Source: a virus (lineage: Duplodnaviria > Caudoviricetes). Taken from it: 52,582 nucleotides of DNA. Under the pieces are notes generated by a model, which saw only the letters and a list, made by a program, of their open reading frames with translations, was not told where the DNA came from and did no database searches. Made by a program: the position numbers and the translations under genes. Within the stretch, counting starts at the first letter, position 1; each line of letters starts with the position of its first letter. Where the stretch lies: the IMG/VR virus record IMGVR_UViG_3300023284_000581, positions 1 to 52,582 of that record; one strand, given 5' to 3'. Of this stretch, positions 14,596 to 52,582 are shown piece by piece.

Positions 14596-14596
14596 C

Positions 14597-16278: not shown

Positions 16279-16281
16279 GCC

Positions 16282-17225: not shown

Positions 17226-17467
17226 TGATTATGGAACTGCAAAAAGCAAAAGACAAGCCATTGGGTAGTTGTGGCGCCCGAATACTTGGCAAGGCGCACA
17301 AGTCGGGCGATAGGCAGTTTTATTGGTTTGAATATGTCAGTTGGAATGGCGAGCAGGCTGTAGCCGCTAGCCAAAGGGATACGGCGTATAGCTTCGATGG
17401 AGGGATAGTAACCGAGGGCCAAATCGTTTACATGCACAACATCGGAGAGTTTCATTTCCACACATGA
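17222..17467 (+). CDS. Hypothetical protein, possible distant paralogue of 16282-16815
   Basis: ATGA-type overlaps at both ends; ARI...DRQFYWFEYV resembles AKI...DSNRWKYAWEEV. Confidence 0.5.
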   Translation: MMIMELQKAKDKPLGSCGARILGKAHKSGDRQFYWFEYVSWNGEQAVAASQRDTAYSFDGGIVTEGQIVYMHNIGEFHFHT

Positions 17468-18144
17468 ACATCATCGCCACAATTTGTAATCGACGTCCCG
17501 ACCTGTTGGAAATACAGGCGCGGCTTTGTATCAAGTTATGTACCGATCAATTCACTTTTGTTGTGGGGGTCGCCAAGCGGTTTGATGTGGGCGATCTATC
17601 ACAATGGTCAGATATTCGGCACGATTTGGAAAGCCGCGAATACAGCGAAAACGTGTTTGAGTTGGCCGATCACATCGATCGGATGAATCCAAGTGCGGCT
17701 ATCTATCTTGAAGAAGATGTATTGCCCATTGGGGCGTTCAGCTTTGATATGTATGCGCCTGTGGCTCGGCATTTTCAGGGCCAACCTGTCTACACGATGC
17801 GTAAGTGGTGTGGTAATTATCCACCTGAAAATCATTGGGACGAAATCGACGCCGAATATGCCGAGGCCAATCTGCTGATGGGCGAACTGCTTGATGGCGG
17901 TCGGTTCTATCACCTCGACAAATCGAGCCACATCCTGCCCCGATGGTTTCAGGATGAGAAATGGGCGCGTGTCAAAGCGATAGCGGACGCGCACGGCGTT
18001 CCAATGCCCGCCAAATCGTGGGCGCGGATCGAACGGGAGCAAACATCGGAAGAAATAGCACGCCATGAGGCGGCGGTGGAAGCGGCTTACGGAGGGAATT
18101 TACCGGAAATACAAGTAGGTAGCTGCAAAGGATGCGGCAACTAG
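17464..18144 (+). CDS. Degenerate GT-A glycosyltransferase-like protein with C-terminal CxxC
   Basis: N-terminal beta strand then NRRPDLLEIQ, AIYLEEDVLPI (DxD-like position), FYHLDKSS, terminal CKGCG. Confidence 0.45.
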   Translation: MNIIATICNRRPDLLEIQARLCIKLCTDQFTFVVGVAKRFDVGDLSQWSDIRHDLESREYSENVFELADHIDRMNPSAAIYLEEDVLPIGAFSFDMYAPVARHFQGQPVYTMRKWCGNYPPENHWDEIDAEYAEANLLMGELLDGGRFYHLDKSSHILPRWFQDEKWARVKAIADAHGVPMPAKSWARIEREQTSEEIARHEAAVEAAYGGNLPEIQVGSCKGCGN

Positions 18145-18154
18145 GAGATAGATT

Positions 18155-19413: not shown

Positions 19414-19614
19414 ATGTCCGATCAAGATCAACTTGACAGGATGGAAAGGCAACTTACATCTATCCATAAATACATCAACGGCCATAACGGCGCCCCCGGA
19501 CTAAAGGTGCGCGTCGATAGACTGGAGCGATTCCAGGCCACCGCATCTAAGTTGATTTGGCTAATTATCGTTGTGGGCATCACCAATATCGCGGTGTTGA
19601 TCCTGACGCGATAG
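19414..19614 (+). CDS. Small coiled-coil + single TM protein (holin-like / membrane protein)
   Basis: QLDRMERQL...GHNGAPGLKVRVDRLE then hydrophobic LIWLIIVVGITNIAVLIL. Confidence 0.65.
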   Translation: MSDQDQLDRMERQLTSIHKYINGHNGAPGLKVRVDRLERFQATASKLIWLIIVVGITNIAVLILTR

Positions 19615-20168: not shown

Positions 20169-20906
20169 TTATTTCTTATGGGCTATTTTGATGATTTTAC
20201 AATCAACAAGGGATATGGAGTACGCCCGCCACCTGTCGCCTATTCGATGATTTACCTTTTTTATCGTACCTTCAAGAATAATTAAATCACCTTTTTTGAC
20301 ATTGGCTAATTGATCAATGTATTTGGTTGAGATCAAGCATTCAAGATCGCAGTGAATTCCTCTTCCTGAAATACTCAGAGATGGTGGCTTGCTGAATGCC
20401 GGCCAATTTGCTTTAAGTGGATTGCCTTTCAGGTAAAAGCCTTTTCCGATCACCCCTCGACTATTGACTTTCGATGCACCCCCTTTTGTATGGAACGTGA
20501 CTCTAATCGCTTTGCCTATCGACTTCATCTTTTTTTCTTGTGAATCGATCCGGTCTTGATAAATATCATTGGGGCTTTGGCCTACAGGTGGCAATACGCC
20601 AGTGGGAAAGGCCTTTGCCAATGCTTCAAACGATGGGATAATGCCCTCTTTCAGGGGTGCGGGAATCGGTTGCTTGCCGCCTCCCAGCGCCTTCACCTGC
20701 GCCACCAGCTTGGCCACCTGCGCCCGCAGCCGCGCGTTCTCAGCCTTGAGCTTAGCCAGTTCGCCCTTGGTGTCCTTGGTCTTGCCCTTATTGAGGATCG
20801 CCTGCGCCGCCCTTTGCCGCGCGGCCCGCGCCTCGACTTCGGCGGGGGTGTCGGCCAGGGTGGCGGTGGCGAGGATCATTCCTATTAGAATTGCCCGGGT
20901 AATCAT
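20169..20906 (-). CDS. Secreted coiled-coil + OB-fold (tRNA_anti-like) protein; lysogenic-conversion candidate
   Basis: Sec-type signal MITRAILIGMILATATLA, coiled coil ELAKLKAENARLRAQV, C-terminal LANVKKGDLIILEGTI...ISLVDCKI; AT-rich 3' half. Confidence 0.7.
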   Translation of the reverse strand: MITRAILIGMILATATLADTPAEVEARAARQRAAQAILNKGKTKDTKGELAKLKAENARLRAQVAKLVAQVKALGGGKQPIPAPLKEGIIPSFEALAKAFPTGVLPPVGQSPNDIYQDRIDSQEKKMKSIGKAIRVTFHTKGGASKVNSRGVIGKGFYLKGNPLKANWPAFSKPPSLSISGRGIHCDLECLISTKYIDQLANVKKGDLIILEGTIKKVNHRIGDRWRAYSISLVDCKIIKIAHKK

Positions 20907-20950: not shown

Positions 20951-21568
20951 CTATTTCAATCGGCTCACCAACATCATGCTTTTCCATAACCACACGCACC
21001 GACCCAGCCCACGAAACCCCACCACGTTAAAACCCTCTTTATTGAGCAGGGTTGTTAGCGATCGCTTCGACCAGAACTTAATATGTCCGCCGTCCCACGC
21101 GCTGTGATGAAAATCCCACCCGCCCGCCAGCGCGATAGCCAGGTTCTTTAGGTAGCCGTGGTATGGCGTCGTCAGGATCAGGTGACCTGATGGCCGCAGC
21201 GCCGCAGCGGCAAATTCCAGGAGCTTGCCCGGGTAATACAGGTGCTCAATCACTTCGCACGATATAACGGCGTCAAAGGTTTTACCCTCCAGCACATCAG
21301 GTGAGTCATAAACACTGCACTGGATAAACCGTGCATCGGGTACAAACTTCGTAGCCTTTTCGGTTCCCTTTTTATCGGTGTCACAGCCGGTTACCTGGAA
21401 CCCCGCATCGGCAAGATGCTTGGTCAGCAGCCCATTACCGCAGCCAAGATCCAATATGGTGGACGCGCCGATCTTTTGACACGCATCCACCAATGGACCA
21501 GCCAGGTACGATTCCGAGTAGCTGGGCACATCACCCCAGTTAAAATCGTCAATGACCATTTCAGTCAT
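20951..21568 (-). CDS. Class I SAM-dependent small-molecule/glycan methyltransferase (UbiG-like, Methyltransf_23)
   Basis: ILDLGCGNG motif I, FDAVISCEVIEH and LRPSGHLILTTP; no DNA-methyltransferase catalytic motif. Confidence 0.88.
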   Translation of the reverse strand: MTEMVIDDFNWGDVPSYSESYLAGPLVDACQKIGASTILDLGCGNGLLTKHLADAGFQVTGCDTDKKGTEKATKFVPDARFIQCSVYDSPDVLEGKTFDAVISCEVIEHLYYPGKLLEFAAAALRPSGHLILTTPYHGYLKNLAIALAGGWDFHHSAWDGGHIKFWSKRSLTTLLNKEGFNVVGFRGLGRCVWLWKSMMLVSRLK

Positions 21569-21582
21569 CTCGGCCCCCTTAC

Positions 21583-21591
21583 TTATCCACA
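21583..21591. promoter_or_regulatory. Perfect DnaA box TTATCCACA
   Basis: Exact consensus about 15 nt upstream of the methyltransferase ATG. Confidence 0.45.
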
Positions 21592-21719
21592 AAAAGTCCA
21601 CAACCTCTTAAATCCAATTGCCGTCACAATTTGGCGCACACTTGAGTTATCGACAGCTTGTTATAATATTCGTGGCCATACCGGGACGGCCACCATTTCC
21701 AATCCGGTGGAGACAACTC

Positions 21720-28570: not shown

Positions 28571-28693
28571 TGGCTGGTAGCTCAGTTGGTAGAGCGGCTG
28601 CGGAAGCAGTGCCACCAGAAGGACGCCTGGAACAGTCGCGAATGGTTCAGGCTATCGACTTCTTAAGCGCAGGTTCGAGTCCTGCCCAGCCCA
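28571..28693 (+). ncRNA. tRNA-like RNA with intact acceptor, D and T arms but anticodon arm replaced by a ~70 nt structured insert
   Basis: 5' TGGCTGG-TA-GCTC-AGTTGGTA-GAGC and 3' GCAGG-TTCGAGT-CCTGC-CCAGCCC-A; 123 nt total; no 7-nt anticodon loop. Confidence 0.8.
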
Positions 28694-31765: not shown

Positions 31766-33463
31766 ATGAAACCACCACAAAACAATCTGTTTCGTTACGA
31801 ACGACCGTCCGCCACCAGCTTGATCGATGACGATCTCGGGATGGTCGTGGACAACTTCGCCGGTGGCGGTGGGGCATCGACCGGAATCGAGGCCGCAATC
31901 GGCCGGCCCTGTGACCTGGCGGTTAATCACGACCCGCAGGCGATCGCGATGCATGAGGTCAATCATCCGGACACACGCCACCTTTGCGAGTCCGTTTGGG
32001 ATATTGACCCCCTGAAGGTCACGGGCGGACGCACGGTCGGTCTCGCTTGGTTTAGCCCGGATTGCACCTACTTCTCCAAGGCGCGCGGGGGCAAGCCACA
32101 ACGCGATGAGGCCAAGAAGGTACGGGGCCTGGCGTGGGTTGTGATCAAGTGGGCCAAGGCGGTTAAGCCGCGCGTGATCATGCTGGAGAACGTCGAGGAA
32201 TTCCGACACTGGGGCCCGCTCAAGCGTGATGGCCAGCCATGCAAAAGGCGCCGTGGCCAGACGTTTGATCAATGGGTCGGTGCTCTTCGCGCTGAAGGCT
32301 ATGAGGTCGATTGGAAAGAACTTCGTGCCTGTGATTATGGCGCCCCAACAATCCGCAAGCGTCTGTTCCTGATCGCTCGTTGCGATGGCCGGCCGATCGT
32401 CTGGCCCGCCGCGACACATGGTAAGGCGCCATTACTTCCCTATCGCACGGCGGCGGAGTGCATCGACTGGTCACTTCCCTGCCCCTCGATATTCGAACGC
32501 AGGCGCCCGCTGGTCGAAAAAACACTCACTCGAATCGCGACGGGAATCCGGCGCTATGTGATCGATGCCCAAGAGCCGTTCATCGTCACTTGCAATCACG
32601 GCGGCGATTGGTTCCGTGGCCAGGGTATTTCCGAGCCGTTCAAGACCGTGACGGGATCGCGCGATGCGCACGGCCTGGTCTCTCCCATCTTGAGCCAATA
32701 CCACAGCCAGAAGGGCGATGAGTCCCGCTGCGGATCTCCCAATGATCCGATCAACACACTGGACACCCAGAATCGTTTCGGCCTGGTGTCGGCGTTTCTT
32801 GCCAAGCATTTCGGCGGTGCGGTTGGCGCGAAAGTAACAAGGCCATTCCCGACGATCACCCAGCGCGGGGTTCAGAACCAGGTCACGACGGCGTACTTGA
32901 ATCGCATCTGTCAGAATGGGTCCAAGGGAAAACGTGTCAGCGATGTTCGGGATCCACTGACCACGATCACCAGCAAGAATGAGCATTGTGTCACCGCTGC
33001 TTTCCTCTCCCACCAGCGCGGTTCAAATACGGGCGGCGGCAACGGCAATCTCGACAAGCCGCTAAACGCTCTCACCGCCGGCGGCAATCACATCGCGGAG
33101 GTCCGCGCGTTCCTGATCCAGTATTACTCGCACGGTTCGGGCAAGACCGGCAGGGCGATCGACAAGCCGGCTCCAACGATCCCGACAAAGCATCGTTTGG
33201 GACTGGTCACCATCAGCGGGATCGAATATCAGATCATTGACATCGGCATGCGCATGTTGCAGCCGCGCGAATTGTTCCGATGCCAGGGCTTCCCCGATGA
33301 CTACGTGATCGATCCGATCAATCCAGCAACCAGCCGGGCATTCACCAAGACGTTGCAGATCAAGATGTGCGGCAATTCAGTATCGCCGCAAATGTCCGAG
33401 GCGCTGGTCCGCGCGAACGTCGCGGCACCTGAGAATTATTTCGCGAAGGGAGCGGTAGCGTGA
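31766..33463 (+). CDS. DNA (cytosine-5)-methyltransferase with repeated variable region
   Basis: DNFAGGGG, FSPDCT (catalytic Cys), LENV, RKRLFLIAR, RMLQPREL..CQGFP and GNSVSP motifs. Confidence 0.93.
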   Translation: MKPPQNNLFRYERPSATSLIDDDLGMVVDNFAGGGGASTGIEAAIGRPCDLAVNHDPQAIAMHEVNHPDTRHLCESVWDIDPLKVTGGRTVGLAWFSPDCTYFSKARGGKPQRDEAKKVRGLAWVVIKWAKAVKPRVIMLENVEEFRHWGPLKRDGQPCKRRRGQTFDQWVGALRAEGYEVDWKELRACDYGAPTIRKRLFLIARCDGRPIVWPAATHGKAPLLPYRTAAECIDWSLPCPSIFERRRPLVEKTLTRIATGIRRYVIDAQEPFIVTCNHGGDWFRGQGISEPFKTVTGSRDAHGLVSPILSQYHSQKGDESRCGSPNDPINTLDTQNRFGLVSAFLAKHFGGAVGAKVTRPFPTITQRGVQNQVTTAYLNRICQNGSKGKRVSDVRDPLTTITSKNEHCVTAAFLSHQRGSNTGGGNGNLDKPLNALTAGGNHIAEVRAFLIQYYSHGSGKTGRAIDKPAPTIPTKHRLGLVTISGIEYQIIDIGMRMLQPRELFRCQGFPDDYVIDPINPATSRAFTKTLQIKMCGNSVSPQMSEALVRANVAAPENYFAKGAVA

Positions 33464-33705
33464 TCACCACCGATGAAATCGAAACCCGTGTATTCCAGAT
33501 GATCCGCGAGCAACTGGGCCAACCAGAATTCGAGGTCCACCGCGAGTTGAATTTCGGGCTCCTGGGCTTTGACAGCATGGACGAACTGGAGTTGTTGATT
33601 GAATACGAGGATGAATTCGATCTGGAGATCCCCGAGAGCGTTTCGGTCAAGTGGCGTACGCCCGGCGATGTGATCGACTGGCTGGAGAAGGAGCTGAGCA
33701 AGTGA
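33460..33705 (+). CDS. Acyl carrier protein-like
   Basis: LGFDSMDELELLIEYEDEFDLEIPE...TPGDVIDWL, with phosphopantetheine Ser in DS; acidic 81 aa. Confidence 0.88.
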   Translation: MITTDEIETRVFQMIREQLGQPEFEVHRELNFGLLGFDSMDELELLIEYEDEFDLEIPESVSVKWRTPGDVIDWLEKELSK

Positions 33706-37356: not shown

Positions 37357-37793
37357 GCACCTTGTTCGACAACACGCCGCGACCCGAAGGCCTGCAATCG
37401 ATCGCCCCGGTCCCGACCAACTACGGCGCGCCGCACAATGGCTCGGACACCAGCAGGGCGGGGGCGCGGAAGATCAGCAGCGAGCGGATCAACCTGGAGA
37501 CCTACGTGAAGGTCGCGCTGTGGAACGCGGGCCGGTCGGGTCTGACTTTGTGCGAATTGACCGAGGCCGTGACGAAGCGCAGGGGTAAGACCACGAAGGA
37601 GACGAGCTTGACGGGGCGGCTTGACACGTTGAGTGGTTATCGAAAGGACGAAAGCGGTAAGCGAGTGCTCCATCCTGGACTGCGGTGGGTCTACAAAACC
37701 AAGAAGCGGCGCATGGGATCGGCACATATCGAAATCACTGTTTGGATGCACAAGGAATTTTGGACGGCTGATATGGGAGATGACAAATCATGA
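37353..37793 (+). CDS. Putative winged-helix DNA-binding protein
   Basis: DTSRAGA...GLTLCEL...SLTGRLDTL...VW pattern. Confidence 0.55.
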   Translation: MSTLFDNTPRPEGLQSIAPVPTNYGAPHNGSDTSRAGARKISSERINLETYVKVALWNAGRSGLTLCELTEAVTKRRGKTTKETSLTGRLDTLSGYRKDESGKRVLHPGLRWVYKTKKRRMGSAHIEITVWMHKEFWTADMGDDKS

Positions 37794-38308
37794 TGACCAG
37801 CACAGAAAAGTGGATGGCCGTTGATGGCTTTCCGTATGAGGTAAGCAGCCACGGCCGGGTTCGTCGAACCAAGGCAATCGGATGCACTTGGGTTGGTCGG
37901 GTGCGAAAGCTTTGCCAAAATAAATGGGGGTATTTGATAACGCGCTTGTTGGATGGGCCAAAACATCGCACCGTAACGGTTCATATATTGGTTGCCTCGG
38001 CATTCCTGGGCCCGAGGCCGGAGGGCAAGGAGGTCAACCACAAAGACGGGGTGAAGCACAACAATCACGCTTCCAATCTTGAATACGTTACCCGGTCCGA
38101 AAACAACAGCCACGCCTTTTCGTTAGGCCTCAAGTGCGTGGATGGAGAGCGCAATCCCCAGGCGAAAATTACCGAGGGCGACGTTCGGGAAATCAGGAAA
38201 CTTCGCGCTGGTGGAATGAAGAACGTAGACATCGCAAAGAGTTACCCAATTGGCGCAACGATGGTTTCCCAGATTTGCGTTGGCAGAGCTTGGAGTCATG
38301 TTCGATGA
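37790..38308 (+). CDS. NUMOD4-HNH homing endonuclease
   Basis: EKWMAVDGFPYEVSSHGRVR (NUMOD4), VHILVA, VNHKDGVKHNNHASNLEY, C-terminal HTH. Confidence 0.92.
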   Translation: MMTSTEKWMAVDGFPYEVSSHGRVRRTKAIGCTWVGRVRKLCQNKWGYLITRLLDGPKHRTVTVHILVASAFLGPRPEGKEVNHKDGVKHNNHASNLEYVTRSENNSHAFSLGLKCVDGERNPQAKITEGDVREIRKLRAGGMKNVDIAKSYPIGATMVSQICVGRAWSHVR

Positions 38309-41986: not shown

Positions 41987-43240
41987 ATGAGCCAAGCAAC
42001 GATCCAACCCGAGAACATGATGGACGCGGTAAAAATCGCCGCGGCCCGCATGGGTATGGTGCCGTCCCGAAAGGGAGGCAATGTCTTGAGCGCACCGAAA
42101 GAGCGAACGGATCGGCCCGGCACCTGGTACTACAGCTACAAGGATCATCGCGGTCGGTGGCGCAAGAAGTCGGGGTTCGCGTCCGACGGCGCCGCCTGGG
42201 CCGACAAGATCGTTACGGAGTCCGCGCTGCAGAACGTCAAGCTTGGTCTCGAGACACCCGAGCAATACGAGCAGGCGCGCGATATGGCGATCCCGCTGAT
42301 CGATCTGGCTGGGCGCAAGCACAATCTGGAGATCGACCAGGGTAAGCGCCGGGGCGATCGCAAGGATGACGATCTTCTTATCCAGTTCCGTGACCACATG
42401 ACGGGCGAGGGCCGGAGCCGGATGCACGTCCGCTGGTTCACCCGGTACGCCGAGGACATGATCACGACCTGCCGGTTCAAGAGCCTGGGGGACATTGAAC
42501 CCAACGAGGTCGATAAGCAACTCGCCAGGCGGATCCAGAACGGCGCCAGCTTCGCGACCCGCAACCGCTATCTATCAGCCATCAAGGCGTTCGTGAACTG
42601 GGCGGTCGAGCGCCGGATGCTCCAGGCCAACCCGCTCAAGTGCCTGCACAAGCTCAATGAACGGAAAGACCCACGCCGGCCGAACCGGGCGCTGACCGAG
42701 GATCAGTTCGAGAGCCTGATCGCCACGGCGCCAGCCCGTTACCGCGTTTTCTACATGGTTTCAGCGTTGACCGGTGGGCGCTGGTCCGAGATCGCCCGGC
42801 TGGAATGGCAGCATGTGGACTTCGATCGCCGCGAAATCTACTACGCGCCTAACATCACCAAGACGGGCGAACCCGGTACGGTATCGATGAACCGCGAACT
42901 TACCCGGGCTCTTAGGGAATTTCGGCCAGTGGGTGCCAGCCTGGGCGACAAGATATTCGGCAATCAGCCCCAGCTACTGACCTGGAAGAAACACCTGAAA
43001 ACTGCGGGCATTCCGCACCAGGACGGCGCGGGCCGAATCGCCGATCGCAAGTGCCTGCGGAGTTCGTTCGCGTCATGGCTGATCGCAAAGGGCGTGCTCC
43101 CGCGCGAGCTACAGATCCTGATGCGCCACGCGGACATCAGTACGACAATGCGTTACTACTCAGATCCCACGCTGGTCGATACCGCGTCGGCCGTCCAGTT
43201 GCTGGGCAAGAAGGTCAAGAAGAAGAAAGGGGTGGCGTAG
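41987..43240 (+). CDS. int: Tyrosine integrase
   Basis: TGGRWSEI (R), KTG (K), KCLRSSFAS (R), MRHADISTTMRYY (H, Y); arm-binding and SAM-like domains; attP downstream. Confidence 0.93.
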   Translation: MSQATIQPENMMDAVKIAAARMGMVPSRKGGNVLSAPKERTDRPGTWYYSYKDHRGRWRKKSGFASDGAAWADKIVTESALQNVKLGLETPEQYEQARDMAIPLIDLAGRKHNLEIDQGKRRGDRKDDDLLIQFRDHMTGEGRSRMHVRWFTRYAEDMITTCRFKSLGDIEPNEVDKQLARRIQNGASFATRNRYLSAIKAFVNWAVERRMLQANPLKCLHKLNERKDPRRPNRALTEDQFESLIATAPARYRVFYMVSALTGGRWSEIARLEWQHVDFDRREIYYAPNITKTGEPGTVSMNRELTRALREFRPVGASLGDKIFGNQPQLLTWKKHLKTAGIPHQDGAGRIADRKCLRSSFASWLIAKGVLPRELQILMRHADISTTMRYYSDPTLVDTASAVQLLGKKVKKKKGVA

Positions 43241-43511: not shown

Positions 43512-43738
<227 letters not shown>

Positions 43739-43746
43739 GGATAGCC

Positions 43747-43992
43747 ATGAAATGCGCCTGCGAAACCCGATGGCAGATCAATGTCGGCGATAAGCGCGGC
43801 TGGTTCATCGTGCCGGCACAGATCGCGGCGCAGGCTCTGGTGCAGGTCAAAGCGGATGTTCAGTTGATTTCCGTCTCGATGTCGATGCTCCGGCCGATAG
43901 CTGTTCCAGGCGTGATCTACCGGGGCGACGATGAGTACGTGGCGAAGGTCTGCCGGGTGTGCGGGTATCCGACCAGGATGGAGAAAGTCTGA
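43747..43992 (+). CDS. Hypothetical Cys-motif protein
   Basis: AAGGA SD; CAC...CRVCG. Confidence 0.5.
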   Translation: MKCACETRWQINVGDKRGWFIVPAQIAAQALVQVKADVQLISVSMSMLRPIAVPGVIYRGDDEYVAKVCRVCGYPTRMEKV

Positions 43993-44246
43993 TGGATGAG
44001 CCGAATCTATTTGGACCGACCACCAAGGACGGCAAGCGTATCAGGGATATGTTGTTTGACCCCGTTTATTGCCATGAAGGCGGCGAGGATCTGGAATCGA
44101 GTGTGATCGAGTTCGATTTGGCTGGCAACGGCATCTGGACAGCTATGTTCTACGCGCCTGACGTTATTGAGAACGGTGACCTTTTTGTGCCAGTGGCTGA
44201 ATGCTACTCGACAAAGGACGCACTTAACGCGCTGGAGAACCAATAG
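43992..44246 (+). CDS. Hypothetical acidic protein
   Basis: TGATG coupling. Confidence 0.5.
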   Translation: MDEPNLFGPTTKDGKRIRDMLFDPVYCHEGGEDLESSVIEFDLAGNGIWTAMFYAPDVIENGDLFVPVAECYSTKDALNALENQ

Positions 44247-44265
44247 CGCGTGATAGAATGCTCAC

Positions 44266-44631
44266 ATGGACAAGCTGCCCGACGACTGGCTGACGCAACT
44301 GCTGGGCGGATTGCCGCCGGAGTACGCGGCGCTGGTGCTCCTGGCCCTGATCGCGCTGGCGGCGTGGATCGCATACCTGGTGATCGGGAAGAAGAAGAGC
44401 AAGAACAACGAGGACCAAGCTTTACGCGAGATCCACGAGAAGAAGACCATGCCGGACTTCATCCGCGACACGTCGAGCCTGATGGTCGATCATGGCAACA
44501 CGAAGCGGCGTGTAAATAAACAAGGCGCCAACGTCGATTGGCATCATGACCGGATCGCACAGATCGAATTTAAGCTGGGTTTGAAGCCGCCACGGATGCG
44601 ACGGGAGATTGAGGACGAGTCGGACGGGTAA
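44266..44631 (+). CDS. Single-TM membrane protein, holin/antiholin-like
   Basis: TM segment YAALVLLALIALAAWIAYLVI followed by GKKK and a charged soluble domain; extended -10 TGaTAGAAT 6 nt upstream of the ATG. Confidence 0.65.
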   Translation: MDKLPDDWLTQLLGGLPPEYAALVLLALIALAAWIAYLVIGKKKSKNNEDQALREIHEKKTMPDFIRDTSSLMVDHGNTKRRVNKQGANVDWHHDRIAQIEFKLGLKPPRMRREIEDESDG

Positions 44632-44649
44632 TTGAGGTATAATCGGGCG

Positions 44650-44805
44650 ATGGACAAGAAGGGCAACATGAAGATAATCCAACTGAAGCCAAGCGAACAG
44701 GCACTGGAATTCGCCCAGTGGATGCGGCGCGTCCGCGAATTGGAGAAGCAAATGTTTCGATCATTTCTCTTGACCGAAGATCAGATTAAACGCCCTAACC
44801 ATTGA
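44650..44805 (+). CDS. Small hypothetical protein (51 aa), probable leaderless gene
   Basis: TATAAT 44638-44643, 6 nt, then ATG; MDKKGNMKIIQLKPSEQALEFAQWMRRVRELEKQMFRSFLLTEDQIKRPNH. Confidence 0.5.
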   Translation: MDKKGNMKIIQLKPSEQALEFAQWMRRVRELEKQMFRSFLLTEDQIKRPNH

Positions 44806-44890
44806 CATCCATCCCGCGCGCTCTGTACGATTCAGACGTGTAGCACCGGCAGGGAGACCTGCCCATGATGTCAATACGCCGGTGCTACAC
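44802..44890 (+). promoter_or_regulatory. Promoter TTGACA-18-TACGAT followed by a 13-bp stem enclosing the SD and start codon
   Basis: GTGTAGCACCGGC (44838-44850) / GCCGGTGCTACAC (44878-44890) perfect inverted repeat; inner GGCAGG-GAGA-CCTGCC hairpin. Confidence 0.75.
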
Positions 44891-45308
44891 AACACCGCAC
44901 AAGAACCATCGCGTCAATCTACTCGGCGCGGTGGTTCTTTTTACTTCAATTCTGACCAGCTGCTCGACCTTGACCGTCTACGATTATGCCGAGGCCGGCA
45001 CGGTCATAGCGCTGGTATCGACCCGGGCCACCGTCGATGAGGCGCAGCAGGTCAAGGATCTGGCCGCCGAGCTTGAAGCGGTCGCCCATCTTGATCGCGC
45101 CGCCATCGAGAAGGTCTACGACAGCGGGGTCGCGCGGATCCGCAACGACAAGCTGCGCCTCGCGCTCGAAAAGCTCAAGCCCAAGCTGATCAGCCAGATC
45201 GTCAAGCTCGCTCAGCGCAACCCGCTGGTGCAGATCCGCGTCCATGTTGTTGAGGCCGCCCAGGGAATTCAAAGCGGCTGCACGATCTATATCACGGCGA
45301 AAAGTTAA
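44865..45308 (+). CDS. Lipoprotein (helical)
   Basis: Basic N-region, hydrophobic LLGAVVLFTSI, lipobox LTSC. Confidence 0.72.
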   Translation: MMSIRRCYTTPHKNHRVNLLGAVVLFTSILTSCSTLTVYDYAEAGTVIALVSTRATVDEAQQVKDLAAELEAVAHLDRAAIEKVYDSGVARIRNDKLRLALEKLKPKLISQIVKLAQRNPLVQIRVHVVEAAQGIQSGCTIYITAKS

Positions 45309-45313
45309 ACGAT

Positions 45314-45387
45314 TGCAGTGTGGAGAAGCGGTCTATCTCGTCGCGCTCATAACGCGAATGTCGCAGGTTCGAATCCTGTCACTGCTA
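45314..45387 (+). tRNA. tRNA-Met(CAT), initiator-like
   Basis: TGCAGTG/CACTGCT acceptor with 1:72 mismatch, D stem GAGA/TCTC (A11-U24), anticodon arm TCGCG-CTCATAA-CGCGA, T arm GCAGG-TTCGAAT-CCTGT; CCA not encoded. Confidence 0.92.
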
Positions 45388-45392
45388 TTCCG

Positions 45393-46151
45393 ATGAAACA
45401 CGAAACCCTCGCACGCATGGCTTTAGCCGCTTACCTGCCGTTGGAACCGGCCGAGTCGCTGTTCATCGACGACGGTTGGTCACTCAAGCTGATCGAACGC
45501 AACGAGACGCAGTGCATGGTGTTCAAGGGCGCGGACGATCTGGTGTTTGCGTTCCGCGGTACCGAGCGAAAGTGGCGGGACATCCGGGCGGACCTGGATC
45601 TTCGCTGGAAACCGATCGACGGCGCGGGTCATGTCTACCGGGGTTTCCACGATGCGATGTGTCAGGTGCGAGACGAACTGTTTGCCCTGGCTGACCGCGC
45701 GGGTGGGCGGAAAGTCAGTGTCACGGGGCACAGTCTGGGTGGGGCTGAGTCGTATCTTTTTGCGTGCTTCCTTGAACGCAGCGGTGTCCGAGTCGATCAA
45801 GTCGTGACTTTTGGGGCCCCCCGACCTGGCGATCGTCGATACCGCGACGTTTACAACAACTGGCTTGTTCATAAGACCTATCGCTACATGCTGTTTACCG
45901 ATCCGGTGTGCCTCGTGCCATCCAATATTCGCGGTGGGCGACACGTCGGTGGCAACTTCGCGTGGTGGACCGGCCTGCGCTGGCGCTACAAGTTTCAGTG
46001 GTGGCGCGCGGCGATTGTCGGGACGGTCGTGCGGTTGCTGCTCGGCTTGGGTTCAAGCCATCCCATGAAGGGCTACGTGGATGTGCTGCGCCGCCATGAG
46101 GACGAGATTGCTCTGAACGGAAACGGTGCGGTGCTGGCGGGGGGTGAATGA
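45393..46151 (+). CDS. Class 3 lipase (Lipase_3, alpha/beta hydrolase)
   Basis: VFAFRGTE, GHVYRGFH, VTGHSLGGA (Ser), VVTFGAPRPG, DPVCLVP (Asp) and HPMKGY (His). Confidence 0.93.
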   Translation: MKHETLARMALAAYLPLEPAESLFIDDGWSLKLIERNETQCMVFKGADDLVFAFRGTERKWRDIRADLDLRWKPIDGAGHVYRGFHDAMCQVRDELFALADRAGGRKVSVTGHSLGGAESYLFACFLERSGVRVDQVVTFGAPRPGDRRYRDVYNNWLVHKTYRYMLFTDPVCLVPSNIRGGRHVGGNFAWWTGLRWRYKFQWWRAAIVGTVVRLLLGLGSSHPMKGYVDVLRRHEDEIALNGNGAVLAGGE

Positions 46152-46933
46152 TGGGCGTAGTCCCTGGAATCCTAAACGGCGGCGCAACGCTGATCGGCCC
46201 TACGACTGATGGCACGGCCAATCAGGTGATGGAGACTGACGGCGCTGGTAATCTGTCGTTTGTCACGCCTGCAGGCGGCGGGGGTTTGGCTGATGGTATC
46301 GCGATCGTAAAGGATCATGAAGTCATACAGGTGGTTGATGTCCACATGGACAATCATCACCAAGTGGGATCGAGCGGCACAGGATCATCGACAGGCAACG
46401 GTCAACGTCGCCACCATTTGGCGACCGGGACCACGGCTGGATCAACGGGGTGGGTCAAGTTTTTCGACGAGAGCTTCATAAATCTATCAGCTACTGAAGC
46501 TGATAGCGCAATGAATTTTAGTAAGGCTATGGAGGCAGTATTTGTACTGTCGCAACTGAACACTACCGCAAACGGGATACTGCGTCTATGGTTCGGTTCT
46601 GATGGCACGCCAACAACCAACCTGGTGGAGAAGACCATGGGGTTTGAAATCCAAGGCAACGCCATTAAGGGCGCACACTATGGGACTTCCGAGGTAATCA
46701 CTGATCTGTCTACCACAGTCACCGCCGATAAGACGACTATTTTAAGGGTATCCAACGACGGCGCGGGCAATCTTGAATGGTTTGTCAATGGCACCACAAA
46801 GGCGACGGCTTCAACTGGGCCGACAGGCACTTTAACTGCTGGCGTTGGGCTGAGTGCTGGGGTTATTAACGGGGCGGACGCAGCTCAGTATTTCTTCTCC
46901 CTTGCCCAAATACGATTGGCGGTAGCACAATGA
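46148..46933 (+). CDS. Virion fibre/appendage-like protein
   Basis: PTTDGTANQVMETDGAGNLSFV fibre-type repeat followed by a beta-sandwich (ConA-like EWFVNG). Confidence 0.65.
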   Translation: MMGVVPGILNGGATLIGPTTDGTANQVMETDGAGNLSFVTPAGGGGLADGIAIVKDHEVIQVVDVHMDNHHQVGSSGTGSSTGNGQRRHHLATGTTAGSTGWVKFFDESFINLSATEADSAMNFSKAMEAVFVLSQLNTTANGILRLWFGSDGTPTTNLVEKTMGFEIQGNAIKGAHYGTSEVITDLSTTVTADKTTILRVSNDGAGNLEWFVNGTTKATASTGPTGTLTAGVGLSAGVINGADAAQYFFSLAQIRLAVAQ

Positions 46934-47142
46934 AAATCGAAGTCACAAGAGACAATTTGAATTTAAGATCACCGATCGACATTGCCGAGCAGTTCGGCAT
47001 TAAGGATCAGTTAACCGAGCTTCCCTCGATACTGGTTGAACGCGATCGCGTTGTGTTGGACTTTCCCGGCGTACCAGAGGACGCGCGAAAGCGCGCCGAA
47101 TTCGAAGCCTACGGCCTAAAACTACTTGAGCAAAGTCGATAA
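46930..47142 (+). CDS. Hypothetical protein
   Basis: Coupled ORF. Confidence 0.55.
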   Translation: MKIEVTRDNLNLRSPIDIAEQFGIKDQLTELPSILVERDRVVLDFPGVPEDARKRAEFEAYGLKLLEQSR

Positions 47143-47831
47143 TGGCAACCACGCCGATCCAATTCAAAGCACCGACCGGGCTGTCGCTTAAGCTAGAGCT
47201 ATATCCGTTTGGCAGTGATACCATCGCCAACGGGGCGGGGGGCGACACCGCGGCCGAGAAGACCAATGCGGACGGCCTGTATTCTGCTGATGTAACCCAG
47301 AACATTACGGGTCTGCATGATGCGGTTATTGTTGACGGGTCGGACAATTTGATCGCGACTTACTCGGTCAACATCCGTGCGGATGACGCGACGATCTATC
47401 GGTGTTCCGATGACGTGGCGGGGCTGGTGGCGCTGCCGGATGCCCAGATAAACAACTTCGATCCTGCGTCTGATGCGGTCGGAACGGTTACGATTTTGAC
47501 CGGTCACACCGCCCAAACCGGGGACAGCTTCGCGCGGATCGGGGCGGCGGGGGTGAGCCTCACAGACTTGGGTGGTATGTCTACAACGATGAAGGCCCAG
47601 GTAAATACCGAAGTTGACGGGGCTCTTGATACTGCTATCGCTGAGTTAGCCAGTGAGCCAGGGGCGACTCCGACCCTGCGTACCGGGTTGATGCTGCTTT
47701 ATATGTGGCTGCGGAACAACACGCAGGATACGGCAACAGCACGCAAGATTCTAAACGATGCCGGGACTACCATCGCAACGGGCACTATGGCCGACGATGG
47801 AACCACCTTCGCGCAAGGGAAACTGTCATAG
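47142..47831 (+). CDS. Putative virion structural protein
   Basis: Ala/Thr/Asp-rich; C-terminal NDAGTTIAT...DDGTTF. Confidence 0.65.
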   Translation: MATTPIQFKAPTGLSLKLELYPFGSDTIANGAGGDTAAEKTNADGLYSADVTQNITGLHDAVIVDGSDNLIATYSVNIRADDATIYRCSDDVAGLVALPDAQINNFDPASDAVGTVTILTGHTAQTGDSFARIGAAGVSLTDLGGMSTTMKAQVNTEVDGALDTAIAELASEPGATPTLRTGLMLLYMWLRNNTQDTATARKILNDAGTTIATGTMADDGTTFAQGKLS

Positions 47832-48157
47832 CGATCAACACCGAGACAAGACGACGGTCGGCCCTTCGATCGGTCCACGCGGTTCCGGACGGGACTATCA
47901 GTTCCCTAGACCGGCGCCATGCGCTGCGGATCTATGCGGGCATTGAGACTGCGCCGGTGGGCCCGGCCTGCACGCCGGCCAACAGTAACTGGGTGGGCGA
48001 TGTGGCGGCTGGCTCAAACGCCCCGGGCGATCTGGTGCCGAACAGTAATTGGCCAGGTGATCTAGTTCCAGCAAGCAACGCCCCGGGCGATGTGTTGACC
48101 AACAGCAATACCCCGGGCAGCATCGCCGTAACCTCAACATGGGACACATGTAACTGA
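47828..48157 (+). CDS. Hypothetical structural protein with 10-aa tandem repeats; probable ATA start
   Basis: AAGGGA SD 7 nt before ATA-GCG-ATC-AAC overlapping the upstream TAG; SN(W/A/T)PGD repeats at ~47980-48130. Confidence 0.55.
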   Translation: MAINTETRRRSALRSVHAVPDGTISSLDRRHALRIYAGIETAPVGPACTPANSNWVGDVAAGSNAPGDLVPNSNWPGDLVPASNAPGDVLTNSNTPGSIAVTSTWDTCN

Positions 48158-48501
48158 TGGCAACGAACGCAGGCACATTGATAGTCTTCGAGGGGACTGA
48201 TCGAGACCTTGACTTTACCCACAGCGGTAATGATGCGTCTACTGCCACGGCGATTCTTTTTACGGTGACCGATGATCCGGGCGTGACCACACTGAACGGC
48301 AAAACCGCGATTAGTAAGACGCTGGGCGCAGGCATCACCGCGCCGGATTCGACTTCAATAATCGTGGCACTGGCCGATACCGACCTCGACGGGTTCGGCG
48401 GCGTGTTGGGCTATTTCGATTTGCGCGTGACGGATGCCAGCGGGAACGAGGATGTGGTGGCGTTTGGTGTGCTGGATATACGGCCAAGTAATACGGATTA
48501 G
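48157..48501 (+). CDS. Putative virion adaptor (BppU-N-like beta sandwich)
   Basis: IIVALADTD...YFDLRVTDASG...VAFGVLDI pattern. Confidence 0.55.
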   Translation: MATNAGTLIVFEGTDRDLDFTHSGNDASTATAILFTVTDDPGVTTLNGKTAISKTLGAGITAPDSTSIIVALADTDLDGFGGVLGYFDLRVTDASGNEDVVAFGVLDIRPSNTD

Positions 48502-49645: not shown

Positions 49646-51061
49646 ATGCCGATTACCACCCTCGACACCCCGCCCACCGCTCAAGACAACGTGTACCGCC
49701 CTTACGGCGCTGCCCGCGAGCTATGGCGTGCCCGCGATGAACAGGTCCTGCTCGAGGGTCCGGCCGGTACGGGCAAGACCCGCGCGCTGTGTGAGTACGC
49801 CTTTGCCTTGGCCTGTGAGTATGACGGCTGCCGCATCCTGTTCATCAGGCAGACGCGCGAGTCGATGACCGAATCGGTGCTGGTCACCTGGGAAGAGAAG
49901 GTGGTGCCCGCCCAGCATCCGTGCCTCGTCGGTCCCAAGCGAAACGGGCGGCAGGCCTACGTGTTCCCCAACCGCAGCGAGATCGTGGTGGCGGGCATGA
50001 AATCGAACGGCCGCGACCAATCGGCCAAGATCATGTCCACCGAGTTCGATCTGATATGCGTCTTTGAGGCCACCGAGATAGCCGAGGGCGACTTTGAAAA
50101 ACTGACCACACGGCTCCGGAATGGTGTTATCCCGTGGCAACAGATCGTGGCCGACTGCAATCCCGGCGCCACCACCCACTGGCTGAACCGCCGGGCTAAT
50201 GATTCCAAGATGGCCAGGCTGCTATCCCGCCATGAGGACAACCCGGTCCTGTATCGCAACGGCAAGTGGACTGCCGCGGGCGTTAATTACATCGGCAAGC
50301 TGGACGCCCTGACCGGTCCGCGCCGTGAGCGATTGCGGTTCGGGCGCTGGGCAACATCTGAAGGCGTGGTGTATGAGAACTGGGATCCGGCTGTACATCT
50401 GATTGACGCCTTCCCGATTCCAGACGACTGGGAGCGGTATCGGTGCATCGACTTCGGGTACACCAATCCGTTCGTATGCGGCTGGTGGGCGATGGACCCG
50501 GATGGGCGACTCTATCGTTATCGCGAGATTTACCACACCAAGCGCATCGTGGCTGACCATGCTATCCAGATCAAGGACTTAAGTGGCGATGAGCGATTCG
50601 AAGACACCGTAGCCGACCATGACGCGGAGGACCGGGCGACCCTGGACCGAGCGGGTATAGGCACGTCATCGGCCAAGAAGGCGGTCAGGCCTGGAATCGA
50701 CGCGGTGACCGACCGGCTCAAGATCCAAGACGACGGCAAGGCTCGGCTCTACATCTTCAGGGACTGCCTGGTTGAAGTGGATGAGAAACTGCGCGAGGCT
50801 CATAAGCCGATCTGCCTTGCCGAGGAATTCGATAGCTACATCTGGAGAAAGTCAGTCGAGGGAAAGCCGATCAAGGAAGAGCCAGTCAAGACGGACGACC
50901 ACGGCATGGACGAGATGCGCTACATCGTGATGCAGTTGGACGCGACCACCGCGATCGACGCCCGCGTACTCGGCCAGGACCTGGACGATTCAGACCACGA
51001 CCCGTTCGACGAGTACGAAGAGGACTGGTCGGCGGGTCAGCATGAATGGGGAGGGAACTGA
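49646..51061 (+). CDS. terL: Terminase large subunit (PBSX-like)
   Basis: Walker A EGPAGTGKT, Walker B-like ICVFEATE, DCNP coupling motif, nuclease CIDFGYTNP and DDHGMDEMRY. Confidence 0.93.
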   Translation: MPITTLDTPPTAQDNVYRPYGAARELWRARDEQVLLEGPAGTGKTRALCEYAFALACEYDGCRILFIRQTRESMTESVLVTWEEKVVPAQHPCLVGPKRNGRQAYVFPNRSEIVVAGMKSNGRDQSAKIMSTEFDLICVFEATEIAEGDFEKLTTRLRNGVIPWQQIVADCNPGATTHWLNRRANDSKMARLLSRHEDNPVLYRNGKWTAAGVNYIGKLDALTGPRRERLRFGRWATSEGVVYENWDPAVHLIDAFPIPDDWERYRCIDFGYTNPFVCGWWAMDPDGRLYRYREIYHTKRIVADHAIQIKDLSGDERFEDTVADHDAEDRATLDRAGIGTSSAKKAVRPGIDAVTDRLKIQDDGKARLYIFRDCLVEVDEKLREAHKPICLAEEFDSYIWRKSVEGKPIKEEPVKTDDHGMDEMRYIVMQLDATTAIDARVLGQDLDDSDHDPFDEYEEDWSAGQHEWGGN

Positions 51062-51423
51062 TGGGCTGGGGTTCACCAATAGAAAAAGAAAATATCACCG
51101 ACCGATCCGCGCCTAACGAGGTAAAGCCAACCGATTGCACCTGTGATTGGCCTGTCGTGAGTTACCCAAACGGACATGGCCACCATCCATCATGCCCGTT
51201 TGGGGTTAGATGGAACCTGCTAGCACAGGGAAGCGGCAATCCCATGTTGCTGCCGGACAAACCGATGGAGTACGCATTGCCGGCGACCAACATCACAGTA
51301 GCGATAACCGAACAGATCGGCGCAGTAAGCGTGACATTCATGGCGGCCTCGACCGAGCAATTAGCTGAGCTTATGGAGAACCAGCGGATACGGAAGTCAA
51401 TGAAATCAGGAGGCGAAAACTAG
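51061..51423 (+). CDS. Hypothetical protein
   Basis: TGATG coupling; CTC...HHPSC motif. Confidence 0.5.
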   Translation: MGWGSPIEKENITDRSAPNEVKPTDCTCDWPVVSYPNGHGHHPSCPFGVRWNLLAQGSGNPMLLPDKPMEYALPATNITVAITEQIGAVSVTFMAASTEQLAELMENQRIRKSMKSGGEN

Positions 51424-51426
51424 CCA

Positions 51427-51654
51427 ATGCTCAAACACCTGGACCCCAACATCAAAACCGCTTTACAGACCGGCCTGGCCCTGAGCTTTCTGCTCGGCAT
51501 GATCGCGTTGGGGGCCGCGCTGGTCTGGTCGTTCTTCGTCCCGCTGACTTTCGCCGAGTGCCTGGTGCCGATCAGTGGCGGCTGGTTCATCTTGTCGGCC
51601 ATCGTCCTGGGGGGCTGTGCAATCTTCTTAACCCGTAAGCTTGAAAAGGGCTGA
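51427..51654 (+). CDS. Two-TM membrane protein
   Basis: AGGAGG SD; two hydrophobic segments and basic C-terminus. Confidence 0.65.
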   Translation: MLKHLDPNIKTALQTGLALSFLLGMIALGAALVWSFFVPLTFAECLVPISGGWFILSAIVLGGCAIFLTRKLEKG

Positions 51655-51658
51655 GTAA

Positions 51659-52582
51659 ATGGGGTTCCTTACAAAACTACGTCACAGCAACGTCGTGGCC
51701 GCGCGCGTCAAGGCCCAGACCGAGCCCGAGAAGTTCCTCGAGTCAACGGTTCGGATCATCGACGGTGGTCCGCATTCGATCTACGGCAAGCCATGGCCGG
51801 CCGATTACCACGCCTTCATGGTGCAGGCTCAATCGTGGGCCTACGCCGCGGCGATGGGTAACGCGCGGACCGCCGCGAGCGTGGCGATGCGACTGTTTGT
51901 CCGAACGACCCGCACGACCAAGGGCCAGTCGGTGCATCCGTTTCTCAAGCGCGCCAACGGCGACCCAATGGAGTTCTGCCATCCGACACAGAAGGTCGAT
52001 CCGCATACGCGCCGCTATCTCAAGGGCCAATTTGCGCACAAGCCGTCGATGGCGGTCCAGCGCAAGGTCATGGCGTTCGGCGAAGACTTCGAAGAGGTTA
52101 CGGATCATCCGCTTCTGCAGTTGTTCCGTAAGGTCAATTCCGAGATGGACGGGTACCAATTCGCGGTGCTGCGCTTCCTGTCGCAGGAGATTACCGGGAA
52201 CTTCTACATGCACCCGATCATGGGCCAGGTGCTTGGCCACCCGCAACCGGTCGAACTCTGGCCGATGCTGCCCCATTGGGTGCGCGTGCTGGTGGCCGAA
52301 CCGGATACCAATGAACTGGTCGAGGGTTATGTCTACGGATCTCAGGGTTCAAACCGTCAACGCTTCGAACCGGACGAGGTTGTGCACTTCAAGTACACCA
52401 ACCCGCGCGATCTGATTTACGGACTGGGCAAGTTCGAGGCCGCTTGGTCGGCGATCCATGTACTGCATTCGAAGCGCACGGCCGACATATCGTTCTTCGA
52501 AAACAATGCCCGGCCGGACTTCCTGCTGACCGCCAAACCCGGGACCAACCCGGATCAGGTCGATCGCCTGGATTCGAAAATC
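51659..52582 (+). CDS. Portal protein, N-terminal part (continues into 1-1413)
   Basis: ATG 51659 open to the window end: HPLLQLFRKVN, GNFY, PVELWPMLP, FEPDEVVHFKYTNP..YGLG are HK97 portal motifs. Missing from the ORF track because it runs off the end. Confidence 0.92.
   Translation, partial: MGFLTKLRHSNVVAARVKAQTEPEKFLESTVRIIDGGPHSIYGKPWPADYHAFMVQAQSWAYAAAMGNARTAASVAMRLFVRTTRTTKGQSVHPFLKRANGDPMEFCHPTQKVDPHTRRYLKGQFAHKPSMAVQRKVMAFGEDFEEVTDHPLLQLFRKVNSEMDGYQFAVLRFLSQEITGNFYMHPIMGQVLGHPQPVELWPMLPHWVRVLVAEPDTNELVEGYVYGSQGSNRQRFEPDEVVHFKYTNPRDLIYGLGKFEAAWSAIHVLHSKRTADISFFENNARPDFLLTAKPGTNPDQVDRLDSKI
52439..52582. repeat. Terminal direct repeat (copy 2)
   Basis: Identical to 1-144. Confidence 0.97.

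Follow-up and report, generated by a model that had tools for sequence, protein, structure and literature searches.

A class 3 lipase without a signal peptide recurs in phages beside a lipoprotein and a small membrane protein, in a module with a possible accessory role in lysis

The DNA analysed here, positions 1-52,582 and the whole of IMG/VR record IMGVR_UViG_3300023284_000581 (hereafter the window), is a complete temperate tailed phage genome of 52,438 unique bases. Its ends carry an exact 144-bp repeat (1-144 is identical to 52439-52582), the record is assigned to the direct-terminal-repeat class, and its completeness is estimated at 100%, which bears out an earlier reading of the letters alone (the sequence-only reading) that had taken the genome to be apparently complete. 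The plus strand holds nearly every gene, and at the start of its long late array, ahead of the terminase gene, lies a cassette that is the subject of this report. It encodes, all on the plus strand, a single-pass membrane protein of 121 amino acids (44266-44631), a charged helical open reading frame (ORF) of 57 amino acids (44632-44805), a lipoprotein of 147 amino acids (44865-45308), a tRNA-Met with the anticodon CAT (45313-45388) and a class 3 lipase of 252 amino acids (45393-46151). Every element that had been listed at this locus, namely the membrane gene, the small ORF, the LTSC lipoprotein, the tRNA and a class 3 lipase with an intact triad, is present. We show that the segment from 44266 to 46151 represents a phage module that recurs elsewhere and combines a class 3 lipase lacking a signal peptide with a lipoprotein and a small membrane protein, and we weigh the evidence that this module assists lysis.

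The lipase matches PF01764 (Lipase_3) at an E-value of 1.6e-19 (70.7 bits against a cut-off of 22) and the esterase/lipase family phrog_21992 at 1.5e-19. Its catalytic residues are Ser114 within the motif GHSLGG (codon at 45732-45734), Asp170 (45900-45902) and His223 (46059-46061), and none of the three varies across the 19 aligned homologues. A profile of the family hits fungal class 3 lipases of known structure at 1.8e-36; because the solved relatives include triacylglycerol lipases, a feruloyl esterase, a diacylglycerol lipase and a plant phospholipase A1, the substrate is not readable from the family. Translation starts at ATG 45393, which aligns with the N-terminus of the nearest homologue (P0002, 51% identity); a start at GTG 45318 was rejected, as the ORF would then read through the tRNA-Met. 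A hydrophobicity scan revealed neither a hydrophobic N-terminal segment nor a signal peptide, in agreement with the earlier description of the enzyme. That description had also placed a hydrophobic and basic patch at the C-terminus. The patch exists, as the Trp/Arg-rich run WRYKFQWWRAAIVGTVVRLLLG, but it occupies residues 197-218, between Asp170 and His223, and holds the same position in P0002; judged by this placement, it is a portion of the catalytic domain and not a C-terminal anchor or tail. Finally, the stop codon of the lipase overlaps the start of the next gene (ATGA), coupling it translationally to a late-type gene of 261 amino acids.

The membrane protein has one hydrophobic segment at about residues 20-40 in the hydrophobicity scan, preceded by an acidic flank (net charge about -3) and followed immediately by KKKSK. 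By the positive-inside rule it is predicted to adopt an N-out/C-in topology, with its C-terminal 80 amino acids in the cytoplasm. Its single homologue (P0026, 58% identity) resembles it mostly in residues 61-115. The sequence-only reading had called this a holin-like gene with a single membrane segment. The single segment is confirmed; the holin label appears weak, as the soluble C-terminal domain is conserved better than the membrane segment. The protein matches no holin or spanin family in Pfam, PHROGs or NCBIfam, and it has one segment and a charged tail but no neighbouring endolysin. Moreover, two other ORFs seem to match holin size and shape at least as well. The first, of 66 amino acids (19414-19614, plus strand), has an N-terminal helix and a C-terminal membrane segment and directly follows the tail genes; its size and architecture are those of an ORF overlapping the endolysin start in Shewanella phage vB_Sb_QDWS, with no significant sequence similarity between the two. 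The second, of 75 amino acids (51427-51654, plus strand), lies between the large terminase and portal genes and has two to three hydrophobic segments and a charged C-terminus; its sole family match is a very weak one to Phage_holin_3_6 (E 1.6). The 57-amino-acid ORF of the cassette matches no family in the same three databases.

The lipoprotein begins with a signal sequence that ends in the lipobox L30-T31-S32-C33, with the Cys codon at 44961-44963 and Ser at +2, and a home-made lipobox filter applied to all six frames identified it as the sole convincing lipobox ORF of the genome. Its family is small (P0027, P0030 and P0028, at 59%, 32% and 29% identity), the lipobox Cys is present in all members, and its look-alikes are viral helical proteins of about 140-150 amino acids. 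The tRNA-Met, found by ARAGORN and scoring 59.3 bits with Rfam, sits 4 nt past the lipoprotein stop and 4 nt ahead of the lipase start. As a putative outer-membrane lipoprotein with a lipobox, the 44865-45308 product has the defining trait of an o-spanin. The 44266-44631 product, as read from its sequence, lacks those of an i-spanin, which are an N-in/C-out topology and a long periplasmic coiled coil, and no cassette protein matches a spanin family in PHROGs, Pfam or NCBIfam.

Scans of viral contigs with the lipoprotein alignment, and of metagenomes with the lipoprotein pair, returned no close relative, and the same was true of the phage as a whole in viral-contig scans with the lipase alone or the capsid protein and in a metagenome scan with the lipase pair. 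Twelve contigs are related by their large terminase (37-56% identity) and share almost nothing else with the window. The phage thus appears isolated, with one closer homologue each for the lipase, the membrane protein, the lipoprotein and a Tat-signal protein described below.

The arrangement itself is not isolated. Three cultured phages encode, in this order, a small membrane protein, a lipoprotein that overlaps the lipase start, and a Lipase_3 protein. In Burkholderia phage BgManors32 (NC_070955.1), a membrane ORF (gp47), a GH19-type endolysin (gp46; phrog_181, 3.5e-56) and an HNH gene are followed by a membrane protein of 109 amino acids (gp44), a lipoprotein of 162 amino acids with the lipobox LAAC (gp43), whose stop overlaps the start of gp42, and the lipase gp42 (phrog_21992, 1.4e-79), and this trio closes the late operon. 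Ralstonia phage Raharianne (NC_054955.1) has gp53, with two membrane segments, gp54, annotated as endolysin RrrD, an HNH gene, gp56, and the lipoprotein gp57 overlapping the lipase gp58. In Shewanella phage vB_Sb_QDWS (OK094664.1) the membrane protein gp16 precedes the lipoprotein gp15, which overlaps the lipase gp14, and the endolysin gp20 lies about 3 kb upstream. The trio is directly behind holin-like and endolysin genes in BgManors32 and Raharianne. In all three phages its annotations are limited to hypothetical proteins plus an esterase/lipase.

Between BgManors32 and vB_Sb_QDWS, identity is 69% for gp44/gp16, 38% for the lipoproteins and 64% for the lipases; the Raharianne lipase is 50-54% identical to the other two, and for its small protein and its lipoprotein blastp at 1e-2 found no counterpart among the parts of the other phages. 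The neighbouring endolysins differ in type, BgManors32 gp46 and vB_Sb_QDWS gp20 being kin (31% identity) and that of Raharianne being the annotated RrrD. Because the three parts are conserved together while the neighbouring endolysins differ in type, the trio appears to behave as a unit. The small membrane protein of vB_Sb_QDWS has only about 19 residues past its membrane segment, and the small membrane proteins of the cultured trios therefore cannot be i-spanins. The module lipoprotein is also the sole convincing lipobox ORF in the complete vB_Sb_QDWS genome and in the 39.6 kb of BgManors32 that were examined; should these phages have an outer-membrane lysis component at all, no other protein is therefore a candidate for it.

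The cultured trios have in common with the window their gene order, a signal-less Lipase_3, a place at the edge of a late operon by lysogeny genes, and residence in a temperate tailed phage. They differ from it in that the lipoprotein stop overlaps the lipase start, whereas the window has the tRNA at that point and the 57-amino-acid ORF before the lipoprotein. They also have a recognisable endolysin, and none was found in the window. If the lipase stood in for an endolysin, the two should exclude each other at this locus, as the sequence-only reading had proposed to check; instead, a canonical endolysin is present in all three cultured carriers. The sequence-only reading had named such an outcome as refuting its endolysin-free mechanism; the lipases of these carriers, however, are only 27-32% identical to that of the window.

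Neighbouring genes in the viral contigs of IMG/VR also connect the lipase with the envelope. An alignment-based scan yielded at least 532 lipase-encoding stretches, and for the best 80 of them the neighbours within 5 kb were clustered. Directly 3' of the lipase, 42 of the 80 loci encode a single-pass membrane protein of about 95 amino acids, a family with no PHROG or Pfam match. An i-spanin-like gene, with an N-terminal membrane segment and a coiled coil (phrog_739, 1e-14), is found in 19 loci, a lipobox lipoprotein beside the lipase (phrog_812, 'Rz-like spanin', 2e-14) in 19, both spanin-like genes on either side of the lipase in 18, and at least one of the three neighbour types in 43. Loci with these neighbours are mostly fragments of T4-like marine phages. 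Seven (L071, L074, L082, L107, L108, L127 and L136) show the order lipase, ~95-amino-acid membrane protein, i-spanin, o-spanin, and in these uncultured marine loci the lipase fills the slot where an endolysin often sits. In four further loci (L081, L083, L110 and L140) the gap between the lipase and an unrelated lipoprotein-like ORF that ends upstream of it is no more than 150 nt, and such an ORF also precedes the lipase of L070, the best viral-contig match to that of the window (38% identity); the background frequency of lipobox-like ORFs is 16 in about 668 kb.

The links of the lipase with envelope proteins, and with lysis genes in several lineages, make it a probable member of an envelope- or lysis-associated gene set rather than a stray metabolic gene. 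Of the lipase-based, endolysin-free lysis cassette that had been proposed, the tie to envelope and lysis genes survives (43/80 loci and the three cultured phages), and the replacement of the endolysin is not supported. We propose, with a probability of about 0.45, that the module is a late-expressed accessory lysis device acting on membrane lipid, most likely that of the outer membrane, at the end of infection. This proposal is favoured by the recurrence of the same layout in three cultured phages, beside an endolysin gene or about 3 kb from one, and by the position of the cassette at the head of the late array with the lipase coupled to the next late gene. There is also a precedent in a Pseudomonas syringae siphophage, in which a GDSL lipase encoded beside the holin and endolysin is assigned by the authors, in the excerpted text of their report, to the lysis cassette (PMC12173070).

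The substrate, compartment, timing and protein contacts that we infer for such a device are as follows. The lipoprotein would be exported and lipid-anchored and, since it has no Asp at +2, the sorting rule of E. coli would assign it to the outer membrane. The lipase would build up in the cytoplasm, perhaps with the membrane protein's cytoplasmic domain restraining it or setting its timing, until a holin breaches the inner membrane and admits it to the periplasm. There, possibly positioned by the lipoprotein, it would cleave ester lipids of the membrane, and the envelope would fail. The peptidoglycan would be cut by an endolysin that profile searches do not recognise. In this role the module would parallel the spanins of most Gram-negative phages and the LysB of mycobacteriophages.

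Several observations weigh against this proposal. The parallel between the window cassette and the cultured trios is one of architecture only: blastp of the window membrane protein and lipoprotein against their counterparts in the cultured phages returned nothing at 1e-2, and the 57-amino-acid ORF and the tRNA interrupt the trio in the window. The marine association comes from a single lipase clade, one of six clusters at 40% identity (19-20 of 48 at 70%), and this clade retains its spanins, so that the lipase is no simple spanin replacement there. In hmmsearch the marine neighbour profiles reached best E-values of only 0.045-0.55 against window proteins, those of the spanin-like neighbours lying at 0.19-0.55. 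Elsewhere the lipase keeps other company: in L070 and L073 it is near portal/MuF genes, in cyanophage P-SSM2 the adjoining genes match none of the four marine neighbour profiles, and in cyanophage Cr-LKS4 it adjoins a dCTP deaminase gene. Finally, the module borders integration or lysogeny genes in all four temperate phages, which is also moron territory.

The last point bears on a different role for the same genes, that of a moron or lysogenic-conversion cassette expressed from the prophage. The lipoprotein would then serve superinfection exclusion in the style of Llp, Cor or Bor, or would confer Tle/Tli-style immunity against a lipase aimed at competitors or brought in by incoming sister phages. 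Once the phage has integrated at 43617-43663, the cassette would be the first gene block inside attL, and in the cultured carriers the lipase abuts an integrase gene (vB_Sb_QDWS) or opposite-strand lysogeny or transposase genes (BgManors32 and Raharianne). A sigma-70-like site (44802-44831, 10/12 positions) just 5' of the lipoprotein gene would suit expression in the lysogen; such sites are not enriched relative to shuffled sequence (3 found, 4.5 expected). Tle phospholipase effectors of type VI secretion pair with adjacent Tli lipoprotein immunity proteins, a layout that a lipoprotein gene directly beside a lipase gene resembles. Unlike that system, the window has no secretion-system genes (VgrG, PAAR or Hcp) among its annotated ORFs, and in a healthy lysogen a lipase without a signal peptide or secretion-system marker would have no contact with an immunity protein of the periplasm. 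The cassette is, furthermore, co-directional and contiguous with the late genes, the lipase stop overlaps the next late-type gene, and in two cultured phages the trio directly follows holin-like and endolysin genes. Taken together, these features make a moron role unlikely.

The genes 3' of the lipase raise another alternative, in which the enzyme is a component of the virion that acts with fibre-like proteins or is packaged in the head, and modifies or breaches the envelope during infection. Five coupled ORFs (261, 70, 229, ~110 and 114 amino acids; 46148-48501, plus strand) follow the lipase, which is translationally coupled to the first, and their products look like fibre or lectin proteins; their membership in the module is doubtful and we treat them as context. 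A homologue of the protein encoded at 47142-47831 adjoins a ConA-like virion protein in L073, and the proximity of the lipase to portal/MuF genes in L070 and L073 also fits a virion protein. According to excerpts of two reports, lipase/esterase domains of the GDSL type occur in phage tail fibre ORFs (PMC7468147), and the proteins detected in cyanophage S-CREM1 virions include a distant 'lipoprotein lipase' homologue (PMC9964418). The S-CREM1 protein was not retained as a case of the same family: the P-SSM2 Lipase_3 matches 14 phage records (E<=1e-3), and S-CREM1 is absent from them. The association with fibre genes is not kept in other carriers, and the lipase is a free protein of 252 amino acids with no fibre or capsid-targeting domain. 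A virion role accordingly strikes us as quite improbable.

A comparison with known systems sets the proposed lysis device in context. Colicin release lipoproteins activate outer-membrane phospholipase A, and the resulting phospholipid hydrolysis permeabilises the envelope; the phospholipase in that case is the host's own. Spanins (lambda Rz/Rz1, T4 PseT.3/PseT.2) resemble the cassette in that a membrane-anchored protein and an outer-membrane lipoprotein are encoded close together, and the marine-clade lipase is directly beside genes matching Rz-like spanin PHROGs. Spanins differ in having no enzyme, and the window membrane protein differs from them in its predicted C-in topology and the absence of a periplasmic coiled coil. 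LysB of mycobacteriophages Ms6 and D29 is a lysis-region serine esterase that cleaves outer-membrane lipid linkages and completes lysis. The window lipase would resemble it in function only, as a phage lysis-region serine esterase acting on lipid and not on peptidoglycan. LysB belongs to another alpha/beta-hydrolase family, whereas the window protein matches Lipase_3 only and is not a LysB family member; LysB also serves phages of mycomembrane hosts, has no known lipoprotein or membrane partners and is known only together with the endolysin LysA, and no LysA-type gene was found in the window with Pfam or PHROGs. The target of such lipolytic enzymes, in the excerpted text of one paper, is the mycolic-acid outer membrane (PMC6116114). 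The GDSL lipase of the P. syringae pv. actinidiae siphophage is likewise encoded beside a holin and an endolysin, and its effect, in the authors' suggestion, is to disturb either the outer membrane or a polymer of the surface; it is of the SGNH/GDSL type and not class 3, it is larger and has a carbohydrate-binding domain, and the excerpted text describes no lipoprotein or membrane partner (PMC12173070).

The search for an endolysin covered 94 ORFs, 75 from a greedy call and 19 plus-strand ORFs displaced by that call. Pfam peptidoglycan hydrolases matched none of the 75 ORFs (E<=0.01), none of 48 unassigned ORFs (E<=10) and none of the 19 further ORFs (E<=1). The lysis category of PHROGs was equally blank (0/75, 0/42 at E<=5 and 0/19), as were the NCBIfam peptidoglycan hydrolases for 67 ORFs. 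Six-frame searches with PF00959 (Phage_lysozyme), PF01510 (Amidase_2) and PF01464 (SLT) returned no match at E<=1, with control genomes positive, and tblastn with the endolysins of the three lipase-bearing phages produced chance-level matches only and no remnant; an endolysin remnant beside the holin-like ORF at 19414-19614 was rejected on this result. The statement that the genome shows no peptidoglycan hydrolase motif therefore holds at the level of profile searches, for the 94 ORFs and the three six-frame families. Blank profile searches are weak evidence that an endolysin is absent, and a divergent endolysin is possible because about half of the genome's ORFs match no family.

Among the ORFs without a family, two structure predictions had confidences too low for fold comparison (predicted local distance difference test scores, pLDDT, of 40.7 and 39.4). 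The first is the product of 5930-6424 (164 amino acids), which has a twin-arginine (Tat) signal, MNRRTSLK..., and whose first 20 residues are fully conserved in P0032 (75% identity); the second is a 125-amino-acid ORF (51046-51423) adjoining the two-segment membrane ORF at 51427-51654. The gene for the Tat-signal protein is coupled to 5433-5930, and the pair lies on the plus strand between the MuF-like gene and the prohead protease gene. The 5433-5930 product (165 amino acids, motif HELGH, Atlas score 0.96) resembles the small zincin peptidases common in phages and does not look like a wall hydrolase. Two complete cyanophage genomes that encode the lipase, P-SSM2 (NC_006883.2) and Cr-LKS4 (OQ625504.1), gave no six-frame match to Phage_lysozyme, Amidase_2, Peptidase_M15_4, Peptidase_M23, SLT or Peptidase_M15_3, a result obtained without lipase-free control phages.

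The host bears on how such an absence would be read. The integrase gene (41987-43240) is followed, 377 nt downstream, by a probable attP core on the minus strand (43617-43663), which, as read from the sequence, comprises the 3'-terminal 47 nt of a tRNA-Pro(GGG) gene, with the anticodon stem at one limit and the discriminator base at the other. Thirty genome stretches contain this core exactly, within a tRNA gene: 16 from Planctomycetota, 5 from Chloroflexota (two from one genome), 5 from Myxococcota/Deltaproteobacteria, 3 from Acidobacteriota and 1 from KSB1. The flanks of these matches do not discriminate among hosts, at most two extra bases agreeing. Of the genomes sampled for a capsid-protein match, 42 of 401 from Planctomycetota (best 4e-50, at 35% identity) and 20 of 401 from Chloroflexota (best 1.5e-40) had one; the sampling covered these two phyla only. 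One Planctomycetota contig has nine genes in common with the phage, at 23-35% identity. Planctomycetota prophages found through the capsid protein share only head and recombination genes with it, and the 66 ORFs scanned in them include no lipase and no Pfam endolysin. On this evidence we lean towards a planctomycete host; because the host is not settled, an argument from an unusual cell wall is unusable in either direction.

These results permit an assessment of lysis with no peptidoglycan hydrolase at all, in which the lipase would lyse the cell, triggered by the membrane protein and partnered by the lipoprotein, in a host whose wall is thin, atypical or absent. Neither the 94 ORFs nor the three six-frame searches contained a hydrolase family, tblastn found no remnant, and nothing but the lipase is recognisable as a hydrolase acting on envelope components. 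Four of the five Chloroflexota among the 30 attB-like matches are labelled Dehalococcoidia, and cultured Dehalococcoides are not known to have peptidoglycan. P-SSM2 and Cr-LKS4 lack the six common endolysin families, within the limits of that uncontrolled search, and the lipase occupies the usual endolysin slot in the seven marine loci. Set against this are the canonical endolysins in three of three cultured carriers of the same three-gene layout, the many ORFs without a family together with the two low-confidence structure predictions, and the predominance of Planctomycetota, which do have peptidoglycan, among the attB matches (16 of 30); a lipobox lipoprotein and a Tat-signal protein also suggest an ordinary bacterial envelope. 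We regard endolysin-free lysis as very unlikely. More doubtful still is a joint and broader claim, that the trio is a self-sufficient lipid-targeting lysis system with no peptidoglycan hydrolase and represents a new class of outer-membrane disruptor beside the spanins and disruptin, one that would span phages of Burkholderia, Ralstonia, Shewanella, marine bacteria and an uncultured, possibly planctomycete, host.

Textbook lysis of double-membraned bacteria requires a holin, an endolysin and a spanin, with the lipolytic LysB of mycobacteriophages and a cationic peptide as the known exceptions. If the module is indeed an accessory lysis device, this conserved mobile trio would add an enzymatic route of outer-membrane destruction for Gram-negative phages. 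It is found in several unrelated phage groups and would explain how some phages manage with no detectable spanin, and its lipases could aid endolysin-based antibacterials. Were the phage truly without an endolysin, it would represent a rare case of a tailed phage leaving its host through attack on membranes only. Phage lysis regions that encode lipolytic enzymes are already known (LysB, GDSL), and the combination of lipase, lipoprotein and membrane protein appears to be new: nowhere in the literature searched was a class 3 lipase described as part of a phage lysis cassette, and the paper naming BgManors32 makes no mention of lipase, esterase or spanin.

The remainder of the genome is that of a temperate tailed phage. 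The large terminase gene (49646-51061, plus strand) is followed by that for a portal protein of 730 amino acids, which is readable only on circularisation across the terminal repeat (51659-52582 joined to 1-1413, plus strand); an ORF in another frame at 51765-52415 is spurious. Head genes encode a MuF-like protein, a prohead protease, an HK97-type capsid protein and head-tail connectors. Further along are a short, unassigned tail block (13421-19369, plus strand), a minus-strand block with a methyltransferase, and recombination and replication genes with two DNA methylases and a Lar-like gene. Two small overlapping ORFs of 101 and 95 amino acids (43687-44246, plus strand) separate attP from the cassette; they match no family in Pfam, PHROGs or NCBIfam and show no membrane segment in the hydrophobicity scan.

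Several minor features were noted in passing. The longest ORF of the tail block is no more than 404 amino acids and the block has no recognisable tape measure protein; by position, the helical product of 14597-15406 (269 amino acids, with a Gly-rich end) could be a very short one, and that of 17464-18144 looks glycosyltransferase-like by eye. On the minus strand, 20169-20906 encodes a 245-amino-acid protein with a cleavable-looking signal peptide and a coiled coil, possibly a lysogenic-conversion gene, which adjoins an S-adenosylmethionine (SAM) methyltransferase gene (20951-21601). A second tRNA (28571-28693, plus strand) was found by Rfam at 39.9 bits and missed by ARAGORN; its anticodon-arm region is 66 nt long against 15 in the model, which makes the gene tRNA-like, its insertion measuring about 51 nt. 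An acyl carrier protein of 81 amino acids (33460-33705, plus strand; PP-binding 4.5e-8, phrog_5934 5.9e-10) is encoded between the C5 and N6 DNA methyltransferase genes. Finally, an HNH/NUMOD4 homing-type endonuclease gene (37790-38308, plus strand; phrog_59, 4.6e-42) overlaps the start of a RuvC-like resolvase ORF, and in BgManors32 and Raharianne, too, an HNH gene is found in the lysis region, where it separates the lipase trio from the endolysin gene.

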